A stretch of 64,000 bases of DNA from an uncultured Candidatus Saccharibacteria bacterium (lineage in GTDB: Bacteria; Patescibacteriota; Minisyncoccia; Phycocordibacterales; UBA1006), in the NCBI GenBank assembly GCA_964415895.1, contig CAYQCC010000001.1, positions 17,934 through 81,933 of the forward strand. Reading direction: 5' to 3'. Within the stretch, counting starts at the first letter, position 1. Every line of letters begins with the position of its first letter. The notes under the pieces were generated by a model that was not told where the DNA came from, searched no databases, and saw only the letters and a program-made list of their open reading frames with translations. Below are positions 3,524 to 48,407 of this stretch, piece after piece. The translations under genes and the position numbers were made by a program.

Positions 3524-5398
3524 ATGGATTTCCGTGCTTTTTCTGTATCCAAAAAATATGGTATTCTAGGGCATATGAAAACGAAACCAGCTTTTAAGAA
3601 TGCGGCACAATTTTTGGATTATTTGAATGAAACATATAACAAACTACACGTTGCATATGAAAATCTTTTTTGGATTTCATATATGGGCGATCATTCTGTA
3701 GATAAAAAATTAAACAAGGCTTTAGCTCTGCGAGATGCATTTCGTTCTAATCCTGATTTTTTGAAACAGGCAGTATCATACCTAAAGAATTCTTCTGCGA
3801 AAGATGCAAGCCGATTAAAAATATGGAAAATGTTTTTCGAACAACACCAAATTCCAGAAAGTGTATTATCTATAAAAAAACAAATTGACGACCTAGAATC
3901 AATAATCATGGAAAAAAGAACAAGTCGTAAGGAGGGCTATATTGATCCAAAAACAAAGAAGTTTGTAGCAGCATCTGAAAACGCGATGCGTATGATTTCA
4001 AGAACTCATTCAGAGGAAAAATACCGAAAGGCAGCTTATGATGCAATGCAGAAATTACCCCTTGATACACTTGATGAATATGTAGAATTAGTAAAACTCC
4101 GAAATAAGTTTGCAACAGAGCTTGGATTTGAGCATTTTTACGCGTACAAATTATGGAACGAGGAAGGAATGAAGATGAAAGAATTGTTTGATTTATTTGA
4201 TAAAATATATGAAAAGACAAAATATGCATTTTCAGATGTACGTAAGCTGGAAAAAACAAAACCTGGTTTACGTCGCCCTTGGAACTACGCATACATGCTT
4301 AGCGGTAATTTTACAAAAGAGGAAGATCAGTATTATCAATTCGACCAAGCACTTGATCGATGGGGAAAATCATTCGCTGCAATCGGAATTGATTACCAAG
4401 GAGGCGAATTACAGCTCGATCTATTAGATCGTAAAGGTAAATATAATAACGGATTCTGTCATTACCCAAAGTCTGTATATAAAAAGGGAAACAAGCTGCT
4501 AAAAGGATCATCGAACTTCACTTGTAATGTGGTATACGGACAGGCTGGCTCAGGTATGCAAGGAATGCATACGTTGTTCCACGAAGGTGGTCATGCGGCA
4601 GATCGATTGAACAGTACTGAATCTGAAATTTGTGTTAACACTGAATATCCACCAGCATCGACTGCCTGGGCAGAAACTCAAAGTATGTTTTTAGACACCA
4701 TGTTTGCAAGCTTGGAATGGAAAGTAAGATATGCAAAGAATGATAAAGGTGAAGCATATCCATTTGAATTGTTTAAAAAGAAGATAGAACAGTTAGGAAT
4801 CTTATCACCACTTTCTATGAATTCGATTCACGGTATGATGGAGTTTGAAAAAAAGATTTATGAATCCAAATCTTTAACAACAGAAAAAGTTCTCGCCATA
4901 GCAAAACAAACTCATAAAAAGTTTAATGACTATAGTGATGATCTTATCTCAGTATTAAATGTCCCACATATTTATTCATGGGAAAGTGCATGTTCGTATC
5001 ATGGCTATGGATTAGCAGAATTAGGACTCAGTCAGTGGCGACAGCATTTTTATGATAAGTATGGATATATTGTAGATAATCCACAAGTTGGAAAAGAGAT
5101 GACACAAGTTTGGAAGCTTGGATCAACAAAAACATTTCCAGAATTTATTAAATTAGCAACTGGTAAAAAGCTTTTATCAAAAGATTATATCGATACGATT
5201 ACTCGTTCAAACGAAAAACGAATAGCACTTGCTAAAAAACGAGTTGAAAGAATGAAGACGGTAAAGCCTTATACAAAACCTGTTAAGTTAAATGCATTGA
5301 TCAAAATGGTTCATGGAAAGAAAGTGATTGCAGATAATAAAAAGAGCTTCGAAGACATGGCTCGCACATATGCGAAATGGCTCAAAACTCAGGACTAG
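3524..5398 (+). CDS. M3-family (oligoendopeptidase F-like) zinc metallopeptidase
   Basis: HEGGHAAD zinc-binding HExxH motif in a roughly 620-aa helical protein. Track ORF 3362..5398. The first in-frame ATG downstream of the 3507 stop is 3524 (MDFRAF...). Confidence 0.5.
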
Positions 5399-5448
5399 AC
5401 AAAAAAAGCTGCTAAATAGGCGCTTTTTTGCTTAGTCATGAATTGTGC

Positions 5449-6159: not shown

Positions 6160-6633
6160 ATGAATATGACCTTTTCTAATTTTATGGATCTTGTTGCAAG
6201 ATTCGATTCAAAATCCTGGAGTAGAAAAGTGCCGGCTACCACAGGACATGTACATTGTGCATCATTAATTTTACCAGAACATATTGCTCTAGAATCCGTT
6301 GCGTCGATGTTATCGATCGGTAATCCTCTTTTTGTCATTACTGCAGAGTTTGCAGATAAATGTAAGCAGGCGAAAACTTGCTGTATTTATTTTATTGAAC
6401 AAGGATATAAAACTGTAACACTGTCAGAGTATGATACGAATAACAGTGTTGGTCCTATTCATGAGATAAAAGAAGAAAAACACCACGAAGGAATCGTTGG
6501 GATTACTTACGGAATTGCACAAACAGGAATTCTGGTAGGTGCGGCAGGTTTTAATGAAGCTGTAAAAACAGTTGCCAGCGAGATTGAGGTAAGAATTATT
6601 CACAACGCCATTTTTCTGGGAAATAATGGCTAA
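6160..6633 (+). CDS. hypothetical protein
   Basis: The ATG at 6160 is in-frame, downstream of the terminator. No confident family assignment. Confidence 0.4.
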   Translation: MNMTFSNFMDLVARFDSKSWSRKVPATTGHVHCASLILPEHIALESVASMLSIGNPLFVITAEFADKCKQAKTCCIYFIEQGYKTVTLSEYDTNNSVGPIHEIKEEKHHEGIVGITYGIAQTGILVGAAGFNEAVKTVASEIEVRIIHNAIFLGNNG

Positions 6634-6714
6634 CATACAGGCATAAGGTGAGCTTCTAATTTTATATTAGAGGTTCTTTTTTTATTACCAAAATTATGCT
6701 AAAGTCAGCCTATT

Positions 6715-8472
6715 ATGGAAAAACAACACCTTTCTTCATCTGATATCCGAAATAGATTCTTGGCTTTTTTTGAAAAACGCGGCCACGCGATTTTGCCGTC
6801 TGCAAGTTTAGTCCCTGAAAATGACCCTTCGGTGTTGTTCAACACGGCTGGAATGCAACCGCTTGTTCCGTATTTGATGGGACAAAAACATCCACTTGGA
6901 AACCGATTGGCATCATGCCAGAAGTGTGTGAGAACAGGCGATATAGAGGAAGTTGGGAATCACAAGAACCTGACGTTTTTTGAAATGCTTGGAAACTGGT
7001 CATTGGGTGATTATTTTAAAGAAGATGCTATCAAGTGGAGTTATGAATTTTTAACAAACAAAGATGAAGGTCTTGGGCTGGATCCAACGCGATTGTATGT
7101 GACTGTATTTGAAGGTGATGACAATGCGCCACGTGATATGGAAGCAGTTGAGATATGGAAGCAGTATATTCCTGAAAACCGAATTTATTTCCTGCCAGCA
7201 AAAAACAACTGGTGGAGTCCTGGAGATAATGGACCATGTGGACCTGATAGTGAAATGTTTTATGACGTGACACCAAACGGATTGGGTGACATGACTCATG
7301 ACGAATATGTGTCAGCAGATGACGATGGACGGGTTGTTGAGATTTGGAACGATGTATTTATGCAATACCTCTCAAAAGATGGAGCAGTCGTTGGAAAACT
7401 TGATCAAGCAAATGTTGATACAGGATCAGGATTGGAACGAGTGACAATGCTTGTGCAAGGAAAAACAAATGTGTACGAAACAGATTTGTTTGCATCGATC
7501 ATGAACATCATAAAAAATACAGCAGGCGACACATATGAAGAGCGAAGTGCGCGCATTATTGCAGACCATATTAAAGCCGCATTGTTTCTTATGGCAGATG
7601 GAGTATTTCCTTCAAACAAAGAGCGAGGATATATTTTACGAAGAATCATACGAAGAGCTGTATTCCGTGGTGGTAAGCTCAAACTTGATCAAAATGCTTA
7701 CGGGATTATAATGAATCTTTACATTGATATTTATAAAGATATATATCCTGAAGTTACGAAAGAAGGCTTGGCAGAAACTTTTGCTCAAGAAGCGATTAAG
7801 TTTATCAAGACTCTTGATGCTGGATTAAAAGAATTTGAGAAAGGCGTTGATCCGTTTATGCTTGCGACAACATACGGATTTCCGATTGAACTTACGGAGG
7901 AACTTGCAACGGAGAAGGGTATTACGATTGACCGCGCAAAATTCGATCGCGAAATGGCAGAACACCAGGAAAAATCCCGAGCAGGCGCAGAACAGAAATT
8001 CAAAGGCGGGCTTGGTGGAACATCTGACAAGATTGTCCGATCACACACTGCACATCACTTGCTATTAGCAGCGCTTCGGAAAGTTCTAGGTGAACATGTT
8101 CATCAAAGAGGAAGCAATATTACTGATGAGCGTATTCGAATCGATTTTGCACATGATGCAAAAATGACCGATGAACAAAAAACAGAAGTGGAACAACTTG
8201 TAAATGAATGGATTAAAACTGATATGCCAATGCAGCGGATGGAAATGCCACGGGCGGAAGCTGAGCAGATCGGTGCTGAAATGGAATTCGGTGTGAAATA
8301 TCCAGATTTAGTTTCAGTATATTTTATCGGAAACAACCTAGACTCTGCAATTTCAAAAGAATTTTGTGGTGGTCCGCATATTGACCATACAGGATTGATC
8401 GGAACATTCAAGATTCAGAAAGAAGAGGCAAGTAGCGCAGGTGTACGACGCATAAAGGCAGTTATTGAATAG
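6715..8472 (+). CDS. alaS: alanyl-tRNA synthetase, short form (catalytic plus editing domains, no C-Ala domain)
   Basis: The N-terminal class II core matches AlaRS. Editing-site motifs HTAHHLL and CGGPH are present. Only 585 aa. Confidence 0.8.
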   Translation: MEKQHLSSSDIRNRFLAFFEKRGHAILPSASLVPENDPSVLFNTAGMQPLVPYLMGQKHPLGNRLASCQKCVRTGDIEEVGNHKNLTFFEMLGNWSLGDYFKEDAIKWSYEFLTNKDEGLGLDPTRLYVTVFEGDDNAPRDMEAVEIWKQYIPENRIYFLPAKNNWWSPGDNGPCGPDSEMFYDVTPNGLGDMTHDEYVSADDDGRVVEIWNDVFMQYLSKDGAVVGKLDQANVDTGSGLERVTMLVQGKTNVYETDLFASIMNIIKNTAGDTYEERSARIIADHIKAALFLMADGVFPSNKERGYILRRIIRRAVFRGGKLKLDQNAYGIIMNLYIDIYKDIYPEVTKEGLAETFAQEAIKFIKTLDAGLKEFEKGVDPFMLATTYGFPIELTEELATEKGITIDRAKFDREMAEHQEKSRAGAEQKFKGGLGGTSDKIVRSHTAHHLLLAALRKVLGEHVHQRGSNITDERIRIDFAHDAKMTDEQKTEVEQLVNEWIKTDMPMQRMEMPRAEAEQIGAEMEFGVKYPDLVSVYFIGNNLDSAISKEFCGGPHIDHTGLIGTFKIQKEEASSAGVRRIKAVIE

Positions 8473-44704: not shown

Positions 44705-45355
44705 ATGACATACGAAGAAATAATTGCGCTTATAGCTGAAAGCAGACCGTCAGCAATTTACATATCCGGAAAGACGAGTACGGGCAAAAGCACGCTGGCT
44801 AACCAGATTGCAGCTACGCTGGATTATGCGCATATTGAGTTTGACGAAATTGTTATCGAATCGATCATCAAGCCATTCAGCGTGCCAGAACATGATCATT
44901 CAAAGGCATTCATTTCCGCATATCGGGATTCGGAATCTTCGGAGCAAAGAAATGCCTTCATAAGGTCAGCAAAGGAGAAAGTAGGCCAGCTGCATAAGGA
45001 AAAGAATATCGTATCAGAAGGCGCGATTGCGAATCCAGGTATGCTTAAGCAGATATTCGATTCAATCGCTGATTTCATGTTCGTCTATATCCACCCTGTC
45101 AATTTGGATGTGTATGAGCAGCGTCTGACTGAAAGGTTCATGAAAGGAGCAGGGCAGGGGAATGCCGGACTTCCCAAGGCATTTTGGGACCTGGTCGATG
45201 ATAAAAGCCTGAGCGATTTCAGGCAGTCGAAAAGCATGAACCCAGATATCATTTATGCGCTGCATCAATTTGCAATCAGCTCACAGCTTGAATCAGGCGA
45301 AAGATTGAATGACATGAAAAAGGAATTTCAGGATATATGCCTGGTTGAAATATAG
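44705..45355 (+). CDS. P-loop NTPase / small-molecule-kinase-like protein
   Basis: Walker A GKTSTGKST. Confidence 0.45.
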   Translation: MTYEEIIALIAESRPSAIYISGKTSTGKSTLANQIAATLDYAHIEFDEIVIESIIKPFSVPEHDHSKAFISAYRDSESSEQRNAFIRSAKEKVGQLHKEKNIVSEGAIANPGMLKQIFDSIADFMFVYIHPVNLDVYEQRLTERFMKGAGQGNAGLPKAFWDLVDDKSLSDFRQSKSMNPDIIYALHQFAISSQLESGERLNDMKKEFQDICLVEI

Positions 45356-45361
45356 AGACAT

Positions 45362-45411
45362 CAGTATGATATGAAAAACCTCTCAATCGAGAGGTTTTTC
45401 ATATCATACTG
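45362..45411. terminator. 23-bp perfect-stem hairpin (loop AAUC) acting as a convergent terminator; overlaps the NUDIX stop codon
   Basis: rc(45362-45384) = 45389-45411 exactly. Core AAAAACCUCUC/GAGAGGUUUUU. Confidence 0.6.
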
Positions 45412-45958
45412 TATCTTCTCGCGCATGTTGGAAATCAACAGAAGTATTTTTGAGAATTTTCAACGTAAAATGTGAGCGATCATCCTTTAGGTTATCTGCC
45501 GGATTTGCAAGTCCTTCTAGTTTTTTAATCAATTCTTCCATTGTTACCCAAACAAGTTTTGAACCTTGCTCATAATCTTCTGTCGATTGAGGAATCTGAG
45601 GTTCGCCATGAAGCCTGGCTGTACAAAGAATGCTCTGAAAACATTTCATTGTTGAATTGTCGTATGAACCAAAACTTCCAATAGGTTCGATGTCCTGGAT
45701 AGTACAACCTATTTCTTCTTTTATTTCGCGTATAAGTCCTTCTTCCCATTCTTCTCCTTCATTAACACCTCCGCCAGGCAAAGGGTATATACGACCAATA
45801 TCTTCTCGAAAGTTAATAGATGCGACTTTTTTATCATCATTGAAAATCAAAACATAAATTGATGGTCTACTGAAATAGCTTTCTTTATCGCCTTTTAAAA
45901 TAAAGCCAAAATCTTCTGCTTCAAAGTGGTTAGCTGAAAATGGATAAGTTATTTTCAT
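45404..45958 (-). CDS. NUDIX hydrolase
   Basis: Nudix box GGGVNEGEEWEEGLIREIKEEIG. Confidence 0.8.
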   Translation of the reverse strand: MKITYPFSANHFEAEDFGFILKGDKESYFSRPSIYVLIFNDDKKVASINFREDIGRIYPLPGGGVNEGEEWEEGLIREIKEEIGCTIQDIEPIGSFGSYDNSTMKCFQSILCTARLHGEPQIPQSTEDYEQGSKLVWVTMEELIKKLEGLANPADNLKDDRSHFTLKILKNTSVDFQHAREDTV

Positions 45959-46078
45959 CTTTTTATTATATCACTTATTTAACTTTTCTTGGCTAGCATA
46001 ATTTTGTGAGCCTTCTCGAGATAGAACCTTTTGGTTCATTATCCTGTAAGGTTGTTTAAGACTTTTCAGTACATCATT

Positions 46079-46588
46079 TCAACCCTTCTCGTGTGTAGAA
46101 GTTTTACCCCATACGCTAAGAAAATGATTTATGTCTTCATGGATATCTAGGACTACTGTTTTTATAACTGCCTCATCTTTCTCATCACCATCCTCCTTAT
46201 AGAACATGTATGTAACTTTTTTGAAGTTATGAGAAATCTTATATATTAGGAAATTATATTTTACTTTTCCATCAAATACGAGCTCATTCCAATCATGTGC
46301 AAAGGCATTTCTCGGGAGACGAATTCTTTTATTTTTAAAATCGTCTTTTGAAGTTATGGAATAGTAACTTGAAAGTTTTATATACAAAAGCTGAATATTT
46401 AGATCGAGTTGTATTAATTCTCTATTGGCCTGAAATAAATCCATAACAGTGAAATGGTTTAGCATTTCATCTGAAGAGTCTAGGTTATTGCCAGTCAAAC
46501 TAAAAAATAATTCTCTTCCTTCAGAAATAAAGGTAATTAAATTAGCTATTTCTTGCTCAAGTCTTCCTTTGTTATTTCCAGCAATCAT
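46079..46588 (-). CDS. hypothetical protein with HEPN-like RNxxxH motif (PRNAFAHD); downstream partner of a two-gene module
   Basis: 169 aa. RNAFAH matches the R-[NHQ]-x3-H catalytic motif of HEPN RNases. It overlaps the upstream gene by 17 nt, which suggests translational coupling. Confidence 0.45.
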   Translation of the reverse strand: MIAGNNKGRLEQEIANLITFISEGRELFFSLTGNNLDSSDEMLNHFTVMDLFQANRELIQLDLNIQLLYIKLSSYYSITSKDDFKNKRIRLPRNAFAHDWNELVFDGKVKYNFLIYKISHNFKKVTYMFYKEDGDEKDEAVIKTVVLDIHEDINHFLSVWGKTSTHEKG

Positions 46589-47756
46589 ATAATAGTTTTA
46601 ATTTAAAATTGCAATTATTTTCAACGTAAGCAATTAAGGAGTTATTGACCATTAAGTCAAAATAAGAAATCACCGGTAGTAGTTCACTAATAGATATTTT
46701 CTTTCTATCGCGTACTCCTCCTGAAATCGCTTCATAGGCAGAATCATCAAAAGAGTTCATACTTATTAGCATTTGTAGGCCTTCGTGCACATATTTAGAA
46801 CGTGCAACGTATATTCTGTCCACAGTTTTTTTCAGAGGAATGATCTGACTTTCTCCTTTTTCGTTCGTAAACATTGTTTTAGTAAACTCAGCATTTTCTT
46901 TAAGAAGATATTTTTCAAAAAAAGAAACAACTGATTTGAAAGACCCTCTGTTCTCCCACATTGTATTAATTTGACTTAATTTTTCTTTATCCACCAACAC
47001 ATCAATGTATTCAGGAAAATCTTCCTTAAAACTAGACCTACCTTTCTCGATTGACGCTATTCCTTCAATTGCTACAACAAACTTTAGGTAAGCAATATCA
47101 TGATCAATGCCTATATTTTTTAAAGCTTCATGATATTCTCTGAAAGCGTGTATGATATTAAAGTGACCTTTGTCCGGAAGATTCATTACTTTCTGAAAAA
47201 AAGGAACGAGATCACTTGTAAGGTTCTTCTTTTTATCATCAAAAATTGATTTATATTCGCTTACTGTATTTGGTAAAAATATAGGATGAGTTATTTTAGT
47301 TGAGACCCCGGTATTATTTCTACTGACTTGATTTCTTAAATAAAAACGTGCTCTCAGACAAACAGCAAAAATACAAATTAGTTCTCCGGCGAGCCCTTCT
47401 TTAAAATAATAACCATCTTTTCTGGCACTGTCAAAATTATTTAACACTTTTGCACTGTATTCTTCGTTAGTCATTTTCCCTAATAAGGTAGGATTTATTA
47501 TTGTAGGAATCCGTAATAAATATCTATAGTAGCCAAATTCATTTTTCTCAGATTCTATCATTCTAAAAGTAATCGGATGCTTTTCTCCAATTTTAAAAAG
47601 TCCGCAGATTCTAGAATCTGAGAAGTATTCATACTCAGTAGCATAACCGGCAAAAAAGTCATCAGCGGGAACTTCGTATCCCTCTAATTCTTTGACGTAT
47701 GTTATGCACCGCATCCTATTATCAACAATATCTGTTACACTTTCTTTTTCAGTCAT
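46572..47756 (-). CDS. hypothetical 394-aa protein with C-terminal Rx4H motif (RIYVARSKYVHEG); upstream partner of the two-gene module
   Basis: No housekeeping family recognised. R-x4-H is embedded in a predicted helical C-terminal region. It lies next to tRNA-Glu. Confidence 0.45.
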   Translation of the reverse strand: MTEKESVTDIVDNRMRCITYVKELEGYEVPADDFFAGYATEYEYFSDSRICGLFKIGEKHPITFRMIESEKNEFGYYRYLLRIPTIINPTLLGKMTNEEYSAKVLNNFDSARKDGYYFKEGLAGELICIFAVCLRARFYLRNQVSRNNTGVSTKITHPIFLPNTVSEYKSIFDDKKKNLTSDLVPFFQKVMNLPDKGHFNIIHAFREYHEALKNIGIDHDIAYLKFVVAIEGIASIEKGRSSFKEDFPEYIDVLVDKEKLSQINTMWENRGSFKSVVSFFEKYLLKENAEFTKTMFTNEKGESQIIPLKKTVDRIYVARSKYVHEGLQMLISMNSFDDSAYEAISGGVRDRKKISISELLPVISYFDLMVNNSLIAYVENNCNFKLKLLYDCWK

Positions 47757-47784
47757 AAATATTTATTATTATATCATTAAATAC

Positions 47785-47811
47785 AAAAACAGCTCAAATT
47801 GAGCTGTTTTT
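47785..47811. terminator. bidirectional terminator AAAACAGCUC-AAAUU-GAGCUGUUUUU
   Basis: 6-bp perfect stem with A-run and T-run. It lies downstream of tRNA-Glu on the minus strand. Confidence 0.6.
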
Positions 47812-47991
47812 GTATACTTCTCGTGCTAGCACGAGATGTTGGTCACAAGTCACTAAGTAAAATTCTTCGCTACGCTCAAATTGTACTAAGTGCTCGCGAC
47901 CCCGTCTCGCTTGTCCATCATTTCATTCTGGACATAGCTCCGACTTCACACTCGTTCGCACGCAAAGCAGTTTGCGTGCTTTGCACTCGTG

Positions 47992-48063
47992 TGACCCTAC
48001 GGAGAGTCGAACTCCGCTTCCATCCTTGAGAAGGATGTGTCCTAACCGATAGACGATAGGGCC
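47992..48063 (-). tRNA. tRNA-Glu (anticodon CTC)
   Basis: rc reads GGCCCTA-TC-GTCT-ATCGGTTA-GGAC-A-CATCC-TTCTCAA-GGATG-GAAG-CGGAG-TTCGACT-CTCCG-TAGGGTC-A, a cloverleaf with a G2-U71 wobble. No CCA is encoded. A TATAAT box lies about 24 nt upstream at 48087-92 on the minus strand. Confidence 0.75.
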
Positions 48064-48407
48064 AAATTCTGAGAGAAATATGCCAAATTATATTTGAGCA
48101 TATTTCCGAAGAATGCAGGCTCTACAGCAAAATGCTATAGGGCCGAGTTTCGAGCGAAATAGAAAAAGAGGAGCTTGCTCATATTTTTCTATTTCCGAGA
48201 AACGATGTCTCTATCTCGTAAGAGATTGGGACTGGCTTATAGATCTCGTATCAAAAGATAGAGTGATCCAATGGTCATCATTATACAAAAAAAATGTCTT
48301 TTATCAAGAGGGAAAAATCGAAGATTTTTCCCTCTTGTGGTGTAATAAATAATTTTACACAGGTTCATGTTGCAAAAAAGTAATGATGTGCGGTATACTG
48401 GTGATAT

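Follow-up and report, generated by a model that had tools for sequence, protein, structure and literature searches.

Two minus-strand genes lie 3' of a tRNA-Glu(CTC) gene in the window, which is the whole 64,000 nt stretch of DNA that was analysed. In agreement with the first-pass annotation, they encode proteins of 394 and 169 aa, overlap by 17 nt (46572–46588), and are flanked by the tRNA, identified by both ARAGORN and Rfam, and by a NUDIX hydrolase gene, identified with Pfam. The features of the region are given in Table 1; homologous loci are referred to by L numbers.

Table 1. Features of the tRNA-Glu region of the window.
Feature	Position	Strand	Basis or remark
Perfect palindrome, 23-nt arms	45362..45411	.	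inverted repeat
NUDIX hydrolase gene	45404..45958	-	Pfam NUDIX, E 7.9e-14
NUDIX own promoter, TGATATAAT	45965-45973		promoter box
Small gene, 169 aa	46079..46588	-	ORF
RNxxxH HEPN-like codons, R93-N-A-F-A-H98	46295..46312	-	family conservation
Large gene, 394 aa	46572..47756	-	ORF
Recombination junction, large-gene block / small-gene block	46609..46614	-	homology limits
Rx4H codons, R319-S-K-Y-V-H324, putative HEPN catalytic	46785..46802	-	C-terminal end of helix 308-325 (HEPN helix H3)
Pair promoter, TTGAGC, 18-nt spacer, TG-extended TATAAT	47768..47797	-	promoter scan 10/12 plus TG extension
Perfect hairpin, 17-nt arms	47781..47815	.	inverted repeat I7, 100% complementary
tRNA-Glu trailer motif, GCTAGCACGAGAAG, conserved, candidate att core	47817..47830	-	
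Structured element, ~160 nt, between tRNA 3' end and conserved tRNA trailer	47831..47990	-	
tRNA-Glu(CTC)	47991..48063	-	ARAGORN; Rfam tRNA, 52.2 bits

The structured element that follows the tRNA belongs to a strongly folding segment (MFE -92.5 kcal/mol for 47776–47992, z = -9.16 against shuffles), and related copies are present at 4426–4560 of L007 and 8636–8705 of L022. It matched no family in an Rfam scan of 45300–48400, in which the tRNA was the only hit and the RsmY and Phe-leader matches on the 45362–45411 palindrome were far below threshold. The trailer motif, for which 0.02 matches are expected by chance in the window, is also found 3' of tRNA-Glu in L001, L025 and L038 and after the att copies of L007. 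The hairpin beside it is the final helix of the MFE fold. Since this hairpin stands between the tRNA and the pair promoter, it is likely to terminate transcription of the tRNA, and the pair is not bracketed by it. The second palindrome is the bidirectional terminator between the NUDIX gene and the convergent gene at 44705–45355 and, being beyond NUDIX, is not a pair boundary either. The bidirectional terminators that had been proposed to bracket the pair are both perfect palindromes, but neither bounds it. The promoter from which both genes would be transcribed (47797–47768) ends 11 nt from the ATG, giving a short-leader mRNA; TGnTATAAT boxes shortly 5' of start codons recur across the window. 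The NUDIX gene has its own promoter, lies inside the low-GC trough, and had no counterpart in the related loci. It is regarded as a downstream neighbour, and its membership of the islet is uncertain.

The large protein consists of a beta-rich N-terminal domain (approximately aa 39–156) and a split HEPN domain in its C-terminal part (approximately aa 179–382), in which the four-helix HEPN core fold is present. The R-x4-H motif reported from its C-terminal region within VARSKYVHEG is there, with the R319 codon at 46800–46802 and the H324 codon at 46785–46787. Of the 48 aligned sequences of the large family, 44 have R319, S320 and H324, and the remaining four, three fragments among them, have gaps or a substitution at the motif. 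Placement of the motif in H3 agrees with ApeA and HepT. HEPN_Apea (PF18739) is the sole Pfam family to recur within the large family, with weak matches in 8 of the 48 members (best E 0.0036). The match in P0046, which scores 16.8 bits and is below the gathering cut-off of 24.4, covers the equivalent Rx4H motif. The large window protein itself had no HEPN_Apea match in Pfam at E ≤ 1, no ApeA N-terminal family was found by Pfam in the 48 members, and a PDB sequence-profile search with the family found nothing. Taken together, the evidence supports a HEPN fold for the large protein, in which the Rx4H is conserved.

In the small protein, three N-terminal helices lead into the Rx4H loop, after which come a three-stranded sheet and a C-terminal helix (AF2 pTM 0.79), with low pLDDT (51–61) for the R93–H98 stretch of the model. 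The exact R-N-x3-H signature noted in PRNAFAHD is present, its R93 codon at 46310–46312 and its H98 codon at 46295–46297. Across the 25 homologues that make up the small family, with identity down to 45%, R93, F96 and H98 never vary, and N94 and A97 are conserved in at least 90%. When distant relatives were sought with an exhaustive HMMER profile search, 13 matches were obtained among 1.84 billion representatives, all of them family members. Nothing recurrent was found when Pfam was searched with the 25 members at E ≤ 10, a PDB profile search returned only noise (diaminopimelate epimerase, E 0.25), and no match better than E 0.076 was found for the small protein by Foldseek in BFVD. The small and large families show no profile similarity to each other by hhalign (probability 2.9%). 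The small protein is considered to be an orphan family for which a HEPN fold is plausible.

Neither window protein matched in Pfam, NCBIfam, PADLOC or PHROGs, so the profile searches assigned no family to either; PADLOC likewise had no match for P0035, P0036 and P0069. NCBIfam gave only noise for ten diverse members of both families, and neither family was found in the scans of viral contigs. The earlier remark that the pair does not correspond to MNT-HEPN, AbiE or RnlAB is borne out by the PADLOC, Pfam and NCBIfam results. The dN/dS of both genes is 0.08–0.13 (about 0.1), which indicates purifying selection, and by this measure both are functional. Judged by family conservation, both motifs exceed chance. 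Both genes are probably RNA-cutting and of a defence type.

A large- or small-family gene is found 3' of tRNA-Glu in six loci, with one or other gene there in the relatives and the pair only in the window. In L001, L007, L025, L038 and L035/36 a homologous tRNA-Glu is directly 5' of a gene of one or other family, and the cassettes that follow it differ among the window, L001, L007, L025, L035 and L038. The pair is the segment of lowest GC in the window. Its GC content is 31.9% as compared to 37.5%, in the lowest 1% of stretches of the same size, and by tetranucleotide distance it ranks in the top 2.2%. Identity to homologues is 84% for the large and 83% for the small protein, against 44–58% for RsmH and FtsI when these genomes are compared. 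These features support both genes being non-core and, by composition, foreign. Together with the variable content of the tRNA-linked loci, they support the region 3' of tRNA-Glu being a variable accessory or defence islet, the insertion hotspot that the first-pass annotation had envisaged. In L007 there are serial att duplications of the tRNA 3' end, in four copies, and L001 has a serine recombinase. No att copy was detected in the window (score 12, against 19–24 in shuffles), and no recombinase homologue was found in it; the route of acquisition here is therefore deduced from the relatives. Downstream of the small gene, a degenerate GCTAGCCAAGAAAAG was considered as an attR remnant and rejected, being no better than shuffles.

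The HMMs of both families were run on six-frame ORFs from all 38 loci retrieved, a limited sample in which several contigs are short. Matches were found in 13 distinct loci for the large family and 11 for the small family, and both families are together in the window alone. The closest large homologues, with 84, 76, 74, 68 and 55% identity, are all without the small gene. That with 84% stands alone, with SLFN_AlbA_2 and a serine recombinase as neighbours, that with 68% is followed by DUF2441 and DUF3800, and those with 55, 76 and 74% have unrelated neighbours. Across its 13 loci the large gene behaves as a single gene with no conserved neighbour. The closest small homologues (approximately 80–83% identity) have HNH, an unknown protein of 299 aa, or a tRNA upstream, one of them being directly behind the 3' end of tRNA-Glu. 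Other contexts of the small gene are RES/resolvase/ParA, after rpoD, and, in high-GC bacteria, after SMODS-SLATT_4. In 8 of the 10 informative loci it begins within 50 nt of the end of a preceding gene or tRNA on the same strand. The spacing is -17 nt from the large HEPN gene, +40 from the 299-aa RSAIIHG protein, +20 from HNH, +18 from a 590-aa unknown, +23 from rpoD, +8 from a 257-aa membrane protein, +49 from SLATT_4, and +38 from the tRNA. The small gene is a separate, stand-alone orphan that sits behind many different upstream genes.

Defence and mobile-element neighbours recur near both families, including restriction-modification, SMODS-SLATT, DruA-like, SLFN_AlbA_2 and DUF3800 genes, recombinases, and reverse transcriptases. 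When the 299-aa protein of L007 was compared with the large family by hhalign the result was 3.4%, though the RSxxxHG motifs align. The labels 'PIN-like' and 'HEPN-like' for the neighbours in L035 (196 aa) and L037 (208 aa) are based on motifs only, because a phmmer search against PDB gave no significant matches for them.

The overlap between the two genes coincides with the recombination junction. Homology to L001 stops at 46614 and homology to L007 begins at 46608. The large ORF of the window is without its native end (...NTVV*) and runs through the small-gene leader TTTTAAATTAAAAYTA, which is common to L007. Comparison with these two loci places the 17 nt overlap at the junction of the homology blocks, where the last few codons and the stop of the large gene were lost. 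The proposal of a translationally coupled two-gene module does not fit this position, nor co-occurrence in 1 of 13 and 1 of 11 loci. As each gene is found elsewhere without the other, this is a chance juxtaposition rather than a new two-gene toxin system.

The best explanation, with a probability of about 0.6, is a variable islet of a Patescibacteria genome in which two independently mobile genes have been set side by side by recombination. The pair would then be an operon by accident, without co-evolution. By analogy with ApeA, the large protein would be a single-protein sensor-effector. Its N-terminal domain, or the pocket this forms with the HEPN domain, may sense a signal derived from infection, after which the HEPN dimer would cleave tRNA or other RNA, leading to growth arrest and abortive infection. 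For the small protein, the invariant RNxxxH and the helical core suggest a minimal HEPN-like RNase as the most likely activity. A functional interaction between the two proteins that has arisen in this genome alone is possible.

One or both genes could instead be non-defence, with an accessory role in RNA metabolism, such as a Las1-like HEPN processing RNase, or a non-catalytic one, such as nucleotide binding. This is unlikely given the patchy distribution, atypical composition and signs of horizontal transfer, the repeated presence of defence and mobile-element neighbours, and families that are very small for a housekeeping role.

It is improbable that the small protein is a promiscuous add-on for any adjacent effector, acting as a regulator, adaptor or broad immunity factor. 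Such a role would account for its near-constant tight packing behind another gene, seen in the spacing described above, and several of the neighbours are nuclease- or effector-like. However, its partners have neither fold nor chemistry in common, yet the small proteins are approximately 80–83% identical, unlike specific immunity proteins, and some of the neighbours are housekeeping (rpoD) or tRNA. The genomes of Patescibacteria (CPR) are small, and tight spacing is usual in such compact genomes. An extended version is a long shot, in which the small orphan family is a promoter-less mobile add-on that lands behind genes, here clipping the upstream stop, and cooperates with neighbouring effectors (HEPN, HNH, SLATT and perhaps PIN), its role being for instance that of a universal HEPN-type modulator or co-nuclease, with a heteromeric HEPN RNase formed with the large protein being conceivable.

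A genuine toxin-antitoxin or Abi module, coupled via the overlap, in which one protein is a HEPN toxin and the other neutralises or activates it, is very improbable and as a conserved system is largely refuted. In its favour, the genes overlap and are on the same strand with apparently one promoter, each has a conserved Rx4H motif, and HEPN RNases work as dimers with composite active sites, so that a large-small heteromer is conceivable, but the nearest homologues of each gene are without the other, the overlap is on a junction at which the native stop codon was lost, and the two proteins share no profile similarity and match no PADLOC model.

With the accidental pairing as the preferred reading, a supposed new two-gene system is removed as a false lead. 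What the locus offers is, first, an unannotated HEPN family, defined by the large protein, whose N-terminal domain is new and extremely conserved and would be a new infection sensor if the protein works like ApeA, and, second, a small protein that is truly an orphan and whose RNxxxH is invariant. It also documents a tRNA-Glu hotspot where the shuffling of small cassettes extends across distantly related Patescibacteria.

ApeA is a single-protein HEPN anti-phage system, represented in Pfam by HEPN_Apea, PF18739 (Juozapaitis et al., bioRxiv 10.64898/2026.01.26.701840). The large protein resembles it in being one polypeptide with an N-terminal region without known homology and a C-terminal split HEPN domain, in the insertions between helices H3 and H4, in the presence of Rx4H in H3, and in being encoded by a mostly solitary gene in defence neighbourhoods. 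It differs in its length of 394 aa, compared to approximately 580 aa for ApeA, in having a beta-rich N-terminal domain of approximately 170 aa without a separate Mid domain, and in HEPN_Apea scores under the gathering cut-off and no PADLOC match to ApeA. For both proteins, the minimal HepT toxins of MNT-HEPN toxin-antitoxin systems (HepT/MntA; PDB 7ae2, 8xdj, 5yep) rank among the best matches by structure, and HepT is close in size to the small protein and has an RNxxxH-type motif. However, there is no adjacent MNT nucleotidyltransferase gene in any locus; in L030/31 there is a SMODS nucleotidyltransferase two genes 5' of the small gene, but this is paired with SLATT_4. The small protein also has no sequence-profile similarity to HepT, has a three-stranded sheet before its last helix, and is without the HxY extension. 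The single-gene HEPN Abi proteins of lactococcal type, AbiV and AbiA (with a C-terminal HEPN), differ in having no sequence similarity, another N-terminal domain, and occurrence in other taxa.

The islet itself differs from tRNA-linked islands in being tiny, at approximately 2–2.6 kb, with no integrase or far-side att copy detected. Like them, it has its genes immediately 3' of a tRNA, a gene content that varies between related genomes at one anchor, and atypical composition; in the relatives there are also att-type duplications of the tRNA 3' end (L007) and, in some versions, recombinases. Current ideas are not overturned by this locus; rather, the known themes of HEPN effectors and tRNA-linked islets are extended to a poorly studied group.

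The HMMs of both protein families were run over the six-frame ORFs of all 38 fetched loci. The window is the only locus in which the families occur together (1 out of 13 distinct large-family loci and 1 out of 11 distinct small-family loci); the pattern-based scans for loci yielded only a small number (genomes gave 6, metagenomes 7), and some contigs are short: L021 ends ~270 nt past the large gene, and L035 begins inside the tRNA. The pair is therefore not the two-gene module proposed in the first-pass annotation, nor a new two-gene system. The closest homologues of the large protein are all encoded without the small gene. Downstream of P0002 (84% identity) comes a convergent SLFN_AlbA_2 gene, and the block also contains a serine recombinase and UmuDC-like genes; P0003 (76%) has a 208-aa ORF before it and a convergent gene after it, and P0004 (74%) lies after tRNA-Glu with an unrelated ORF downstream. 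P0005 (68%) is followed by DUF2441 and DUF3800, and P0007 (55%) by an unrelated 257-aa ORF. Among more distant members, some stand alone and others are found beside Dam-DpnI restriction-modification genes and a recombinase remnant, Bro-N, or DUF5677.

The neighbourhood of the small gene likewise differs from locus to locus. It follows proteins without known family of 299 aa (L007) and 590 aa (L012), an HNH protein (L025), the tRNA-Glu 3' end directly (L035/36), rpoD (L009/L033), or a 257-aa membrane protein (L028). In L027 the context is resolvase, RES and ParA, and in the high-GC non-Patescibacteria contigs (L029-L032) it comes after SMODS-SLATT_4 or beside DruA-like, ASCH and ResIII genes. 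It is considered improbable that the small gene is a mobile add-on that works together with the various effectors it lies beside, or that its product pairs with the large protein in a heteromer in the window. A 196-aa ORF in L035 (580-1170) starts 1 nt past the small gene; it recalls PIN-domain toxins in two segments, LDTCIIIY near the N-terminus and LLTSNKRDF near the C-terminus, and a PDB sequence search with it gave no match.

The two ORFs do overlap by 17 nt, as had been claimed, and translational coupling had been read from this. At the DNA level, the window is homologous to L001 in the large gene alone (47762 to 46614) and to L007 in the small gene and the 20-nt leader before it (46608 to 46102); the two blocks meet at 46609-46614. 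Relatives of the large protein end in '...EKNTVV' (stop) or similar; the window protein has instead the unique tail NFKLKLLYDCWK, read from the small-gene leader (TTTTAAATTAAAAYTA, common to the window and L007) and the first codons of the small gene. The overlap is therefore a by-product of juxtaposition and no evolved coupling device.

Features of the locus in the window
Feature	Coordinates	Strand	Remarks
Large gene	46572..47756	-	ORF, 394 aa
Small gene	46079..46588	-	ORF, 169 aa
tRNA-Glu(CTC)	47991..48063		upstream of pair
NUDIX hydrolase gene	45404..45958		downstream of pair; Pfam E 7.9e-14
Perfect palindrome	47781-47815		
Perfect palindrome	45362-45411		23-bp arms, between convergent genes
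Promoter-like site	47797-47768		TG-extended TATAAT; 11 nt between its end and large-gene ATG
Trailer motif	47817-47830		
Structured element	47831-47990	-	~160 nt, between tRNA-Glu 3' end and trailer motif; MFE z = -9.2

Both expected neighbours, the tRNA-Glu upstream and the NUDIX gene downstream, were found. The promoter-like site gives the pair a promoter of its own, from which the large and small genes are probably co-transcribed; that of the NUDIX gene is separate. TGnTATAAT boxes also stand shortly 5' of other start codons in the window, including that of NUDIX. There are seven in the window (at 5446, 10305, 31795, 39535, 45973, 47776 and 63149), several of which shortly precede a start codon. 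This suggests that many mRNAs of this genome have a very short leader or none at all. The palindromes had been described as terminators bracketing the pair. Both exist, but the one nearer the tRNA is the hairpin that terminates the tRNA transcript and does not bracket the pair; the other is most simply a bidirectional terminator. Rfam candidates for region 45308-45411, RsmY (27.9 bits against 57) and the Phe leader, were all below threshold and were rejected as hairpin artefacts.

A tRNA-Glu homologous to that of the window lies directly upstream of either gene in L001, L007, L025, L038 and L035/36, and tRNA-Gln is found upstream of the large homologue in L004. This recurrence of either gene 3' of tRNA-Glu agrees with the insertion hotspot suggested earlier. 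In L007 the tRNA-Glu 3' end is present in four copies, the tRNA itself (4352-4425) and partial copies at ~4560-4600, ~6600-6642 and 7476-7491, which bracket successive small gene blocks with no integrase. One of these blocks consists of DUF2188, the 299-aa protein and the small gene. The arrangement indicates that, in a related Patescibacteria genome, mini-cassettes entered at tRNA-Glu by serial site-specific integration. A far-side att copy (the repeated tRNA 3' end) and a recombinase were searched for in the window, and neither was found.

The pair has the lowest GC of the 64-kb window, at 31.9% against 37.5%; among segments of its size it is in the lowest 1%, and its tetranucleotide distance is in the top 2.2%. 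The large and small proteins share 84% and 83% identity with their L001 and L007 counterparts, whereas RsmH and FtsI of the window share only 44-58% with theirs. Together with the hotspot linkage and composition, this contrast shows both genes to be horizontally mobile accessory genes; the behaviour of the locus is that of a tRNA-linked islet.

Several loci have a trailer motif, GCTAGCACGAGAAG, behind the tRNA or the att copies. As GCTAG[CT]ACGA[GT]AAG it is found a few bases past tRNA-Glu in the window, L001 (5941-5954), L025 (4204-4217) and L038 (~155-168), conserved in several distantly related genomes with ~0.02 chance matches expected in the window. An att core is one possible reading of it, a tRNA trailer or processing signal another. 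The structured element has related copies in L007 (4426-4560) and L022 (8636-8705) and no Rfam family match. It contains a long hairpin whose arms (GGGGTCGC..., ...GTGACC) look like the 3' end of the tRNA acceptor and the complement of that end. A recombination scar, a miniature mobile element and an unknown RNA are possible explanations for it. Two further unannotated ORFs that adjoin members of the two families, of 299 aa in L007 (5061-5960) and 208 aa in L037 (107-733), contain the HEPN-like motifs RSAIIHG and RNLLLHGH respectively, with no Pfam, PADLOC or PDB match; HEPN-like genes seem to cluster at the tRNA-Glu hotspot.

For both genes dN/dS against the closest homologues is 0.08-0.13, therefore both are functional. 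A single-sequence search with the large protein found 9 homologues, and a profile search 48 clusters. The Rx4H motif reported in its C-terminal region is present (RSKYVH, residues 319-324) and conserved, with R319, S320, H324 and G326 kept in 44 of the 48 aligned sequences; the remaining four, three fragments among them, have gaps or a substitution at the motif. The window protein has no match in Pfam, NCBIfam, PADLOC or PHROGs. HEPN_Apea is the only recurrent Pfam family among the 48 members (8 members, best E 0.0036, below gathering), its match in P0046 (residues 221-308) containing an RSTYLH motif, and P0036 carries the NCBI name 'HEPN domain-containing protein'. In the AF2 model (pTM 0.83) the N-terminal domain (~39-156) is rich in beta strands and the C-terminal domain (~179-382) is helical; helix 308-325 bears the Rx4H at its C-terminal end, and a long insertion separates it from the last helix. 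Taken together, these lines of evidence show a HEPN fold with a conserved Rx4H. Conservation in the family is highest in the N-terminal domain, for which the structural search gave no meaningful match. Sixteen residues are invariant in 48/48 sequences (E43, S46, R49, G52, E70, Y79, G115, Y116, F118, G124, E125, R137, F138, N178, F186 and H198). The large proteins form a HEPN effector family that had no annotation and whose N-terminal domain is new. Member P0044 (L016 3968-5695; 575 aa) has a C-terminal extension of ~200 aa, and P0072 (408 aa), a partial sequence, carries a fused transglutaminase-core domain (PF01841, PF04473).

The small gene is an orphan gene, with homologues in 25 clusters. 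The HEPN RNxxxH signature attributed to its product is present (RNAFAH, residues 93-98), with R93, F96 and H98 invariant and N94 and A97 at least 90% conserved, but no library links the family to HEPN. The protein and its relatives are unrecognised by Pfam, NCBIfam, PADLOC and PHROGs. Searched by profile against 1.84 billion representatives, the family finds only itself, and its profile shows no similarity to that of the large family. The AF2 model (pTM 0.79) has helices 4-32, 45-54 and 56-79, a low-confidence stretch at 80-110 that includes the motif, a three-stranded sheet (111-148) and a last helix (149-166). This order of third helix, motif, insertion and last helix is compatible with a HEPN core with an H3-H4 insertion, and a HEPN fold is slightly more likely than not. 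The small family is also found outside Patescibacteria, on the L029-L032 contigs (up to 669 kb), where DUF6791-ThiF/DUF6527 and SNF2-type helicases are further neighbours; these are defence-island contexts. In one lineage (L009-L011, L033; dozens of contigs) it is fixed directly after dnaG-rpoD, with a 176-aa unannotated ORF and then a DUF2779 protein past it. For a gene that is otherwise mobile, so stable a position beside housekeeping genes is unusual.

Each gene is thus found to occur alone, in defence or mobile neighbourhoods, and to be mobile. In ApeA, a single HEPN protein, the non-HEPN region and HEPN domain form a ligand pocket, and ligand binding leads to tRNA anticodon cleavage and abortive infection (bioRxiv 10.64898/2026.01.26.701840). 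The large protein would work like ApeA; the small protein would most simply be a stand-alone minimal HEPN-like RNase, which is proposed less firmly. ApeA is a 'split HEPN', with catalytic residues in H3 and insertions between H3 and H4 (bioRxiv 10.64898/2026.01.26.701840), and the large protein has the same layout. The two are alike in logic and HEPN subtype. However, in the large family HEPN_Apea is below threshold, PADLOC gives no match and there is no signal of the ApeA N-terminal or Mid domain, and the large protein has 394 aa against about 580 aa for ApeA. The small family resembles the minimal HepT-type HEPN toxins in structure, but differs from them in having neither an MNT partner nor a profile link.
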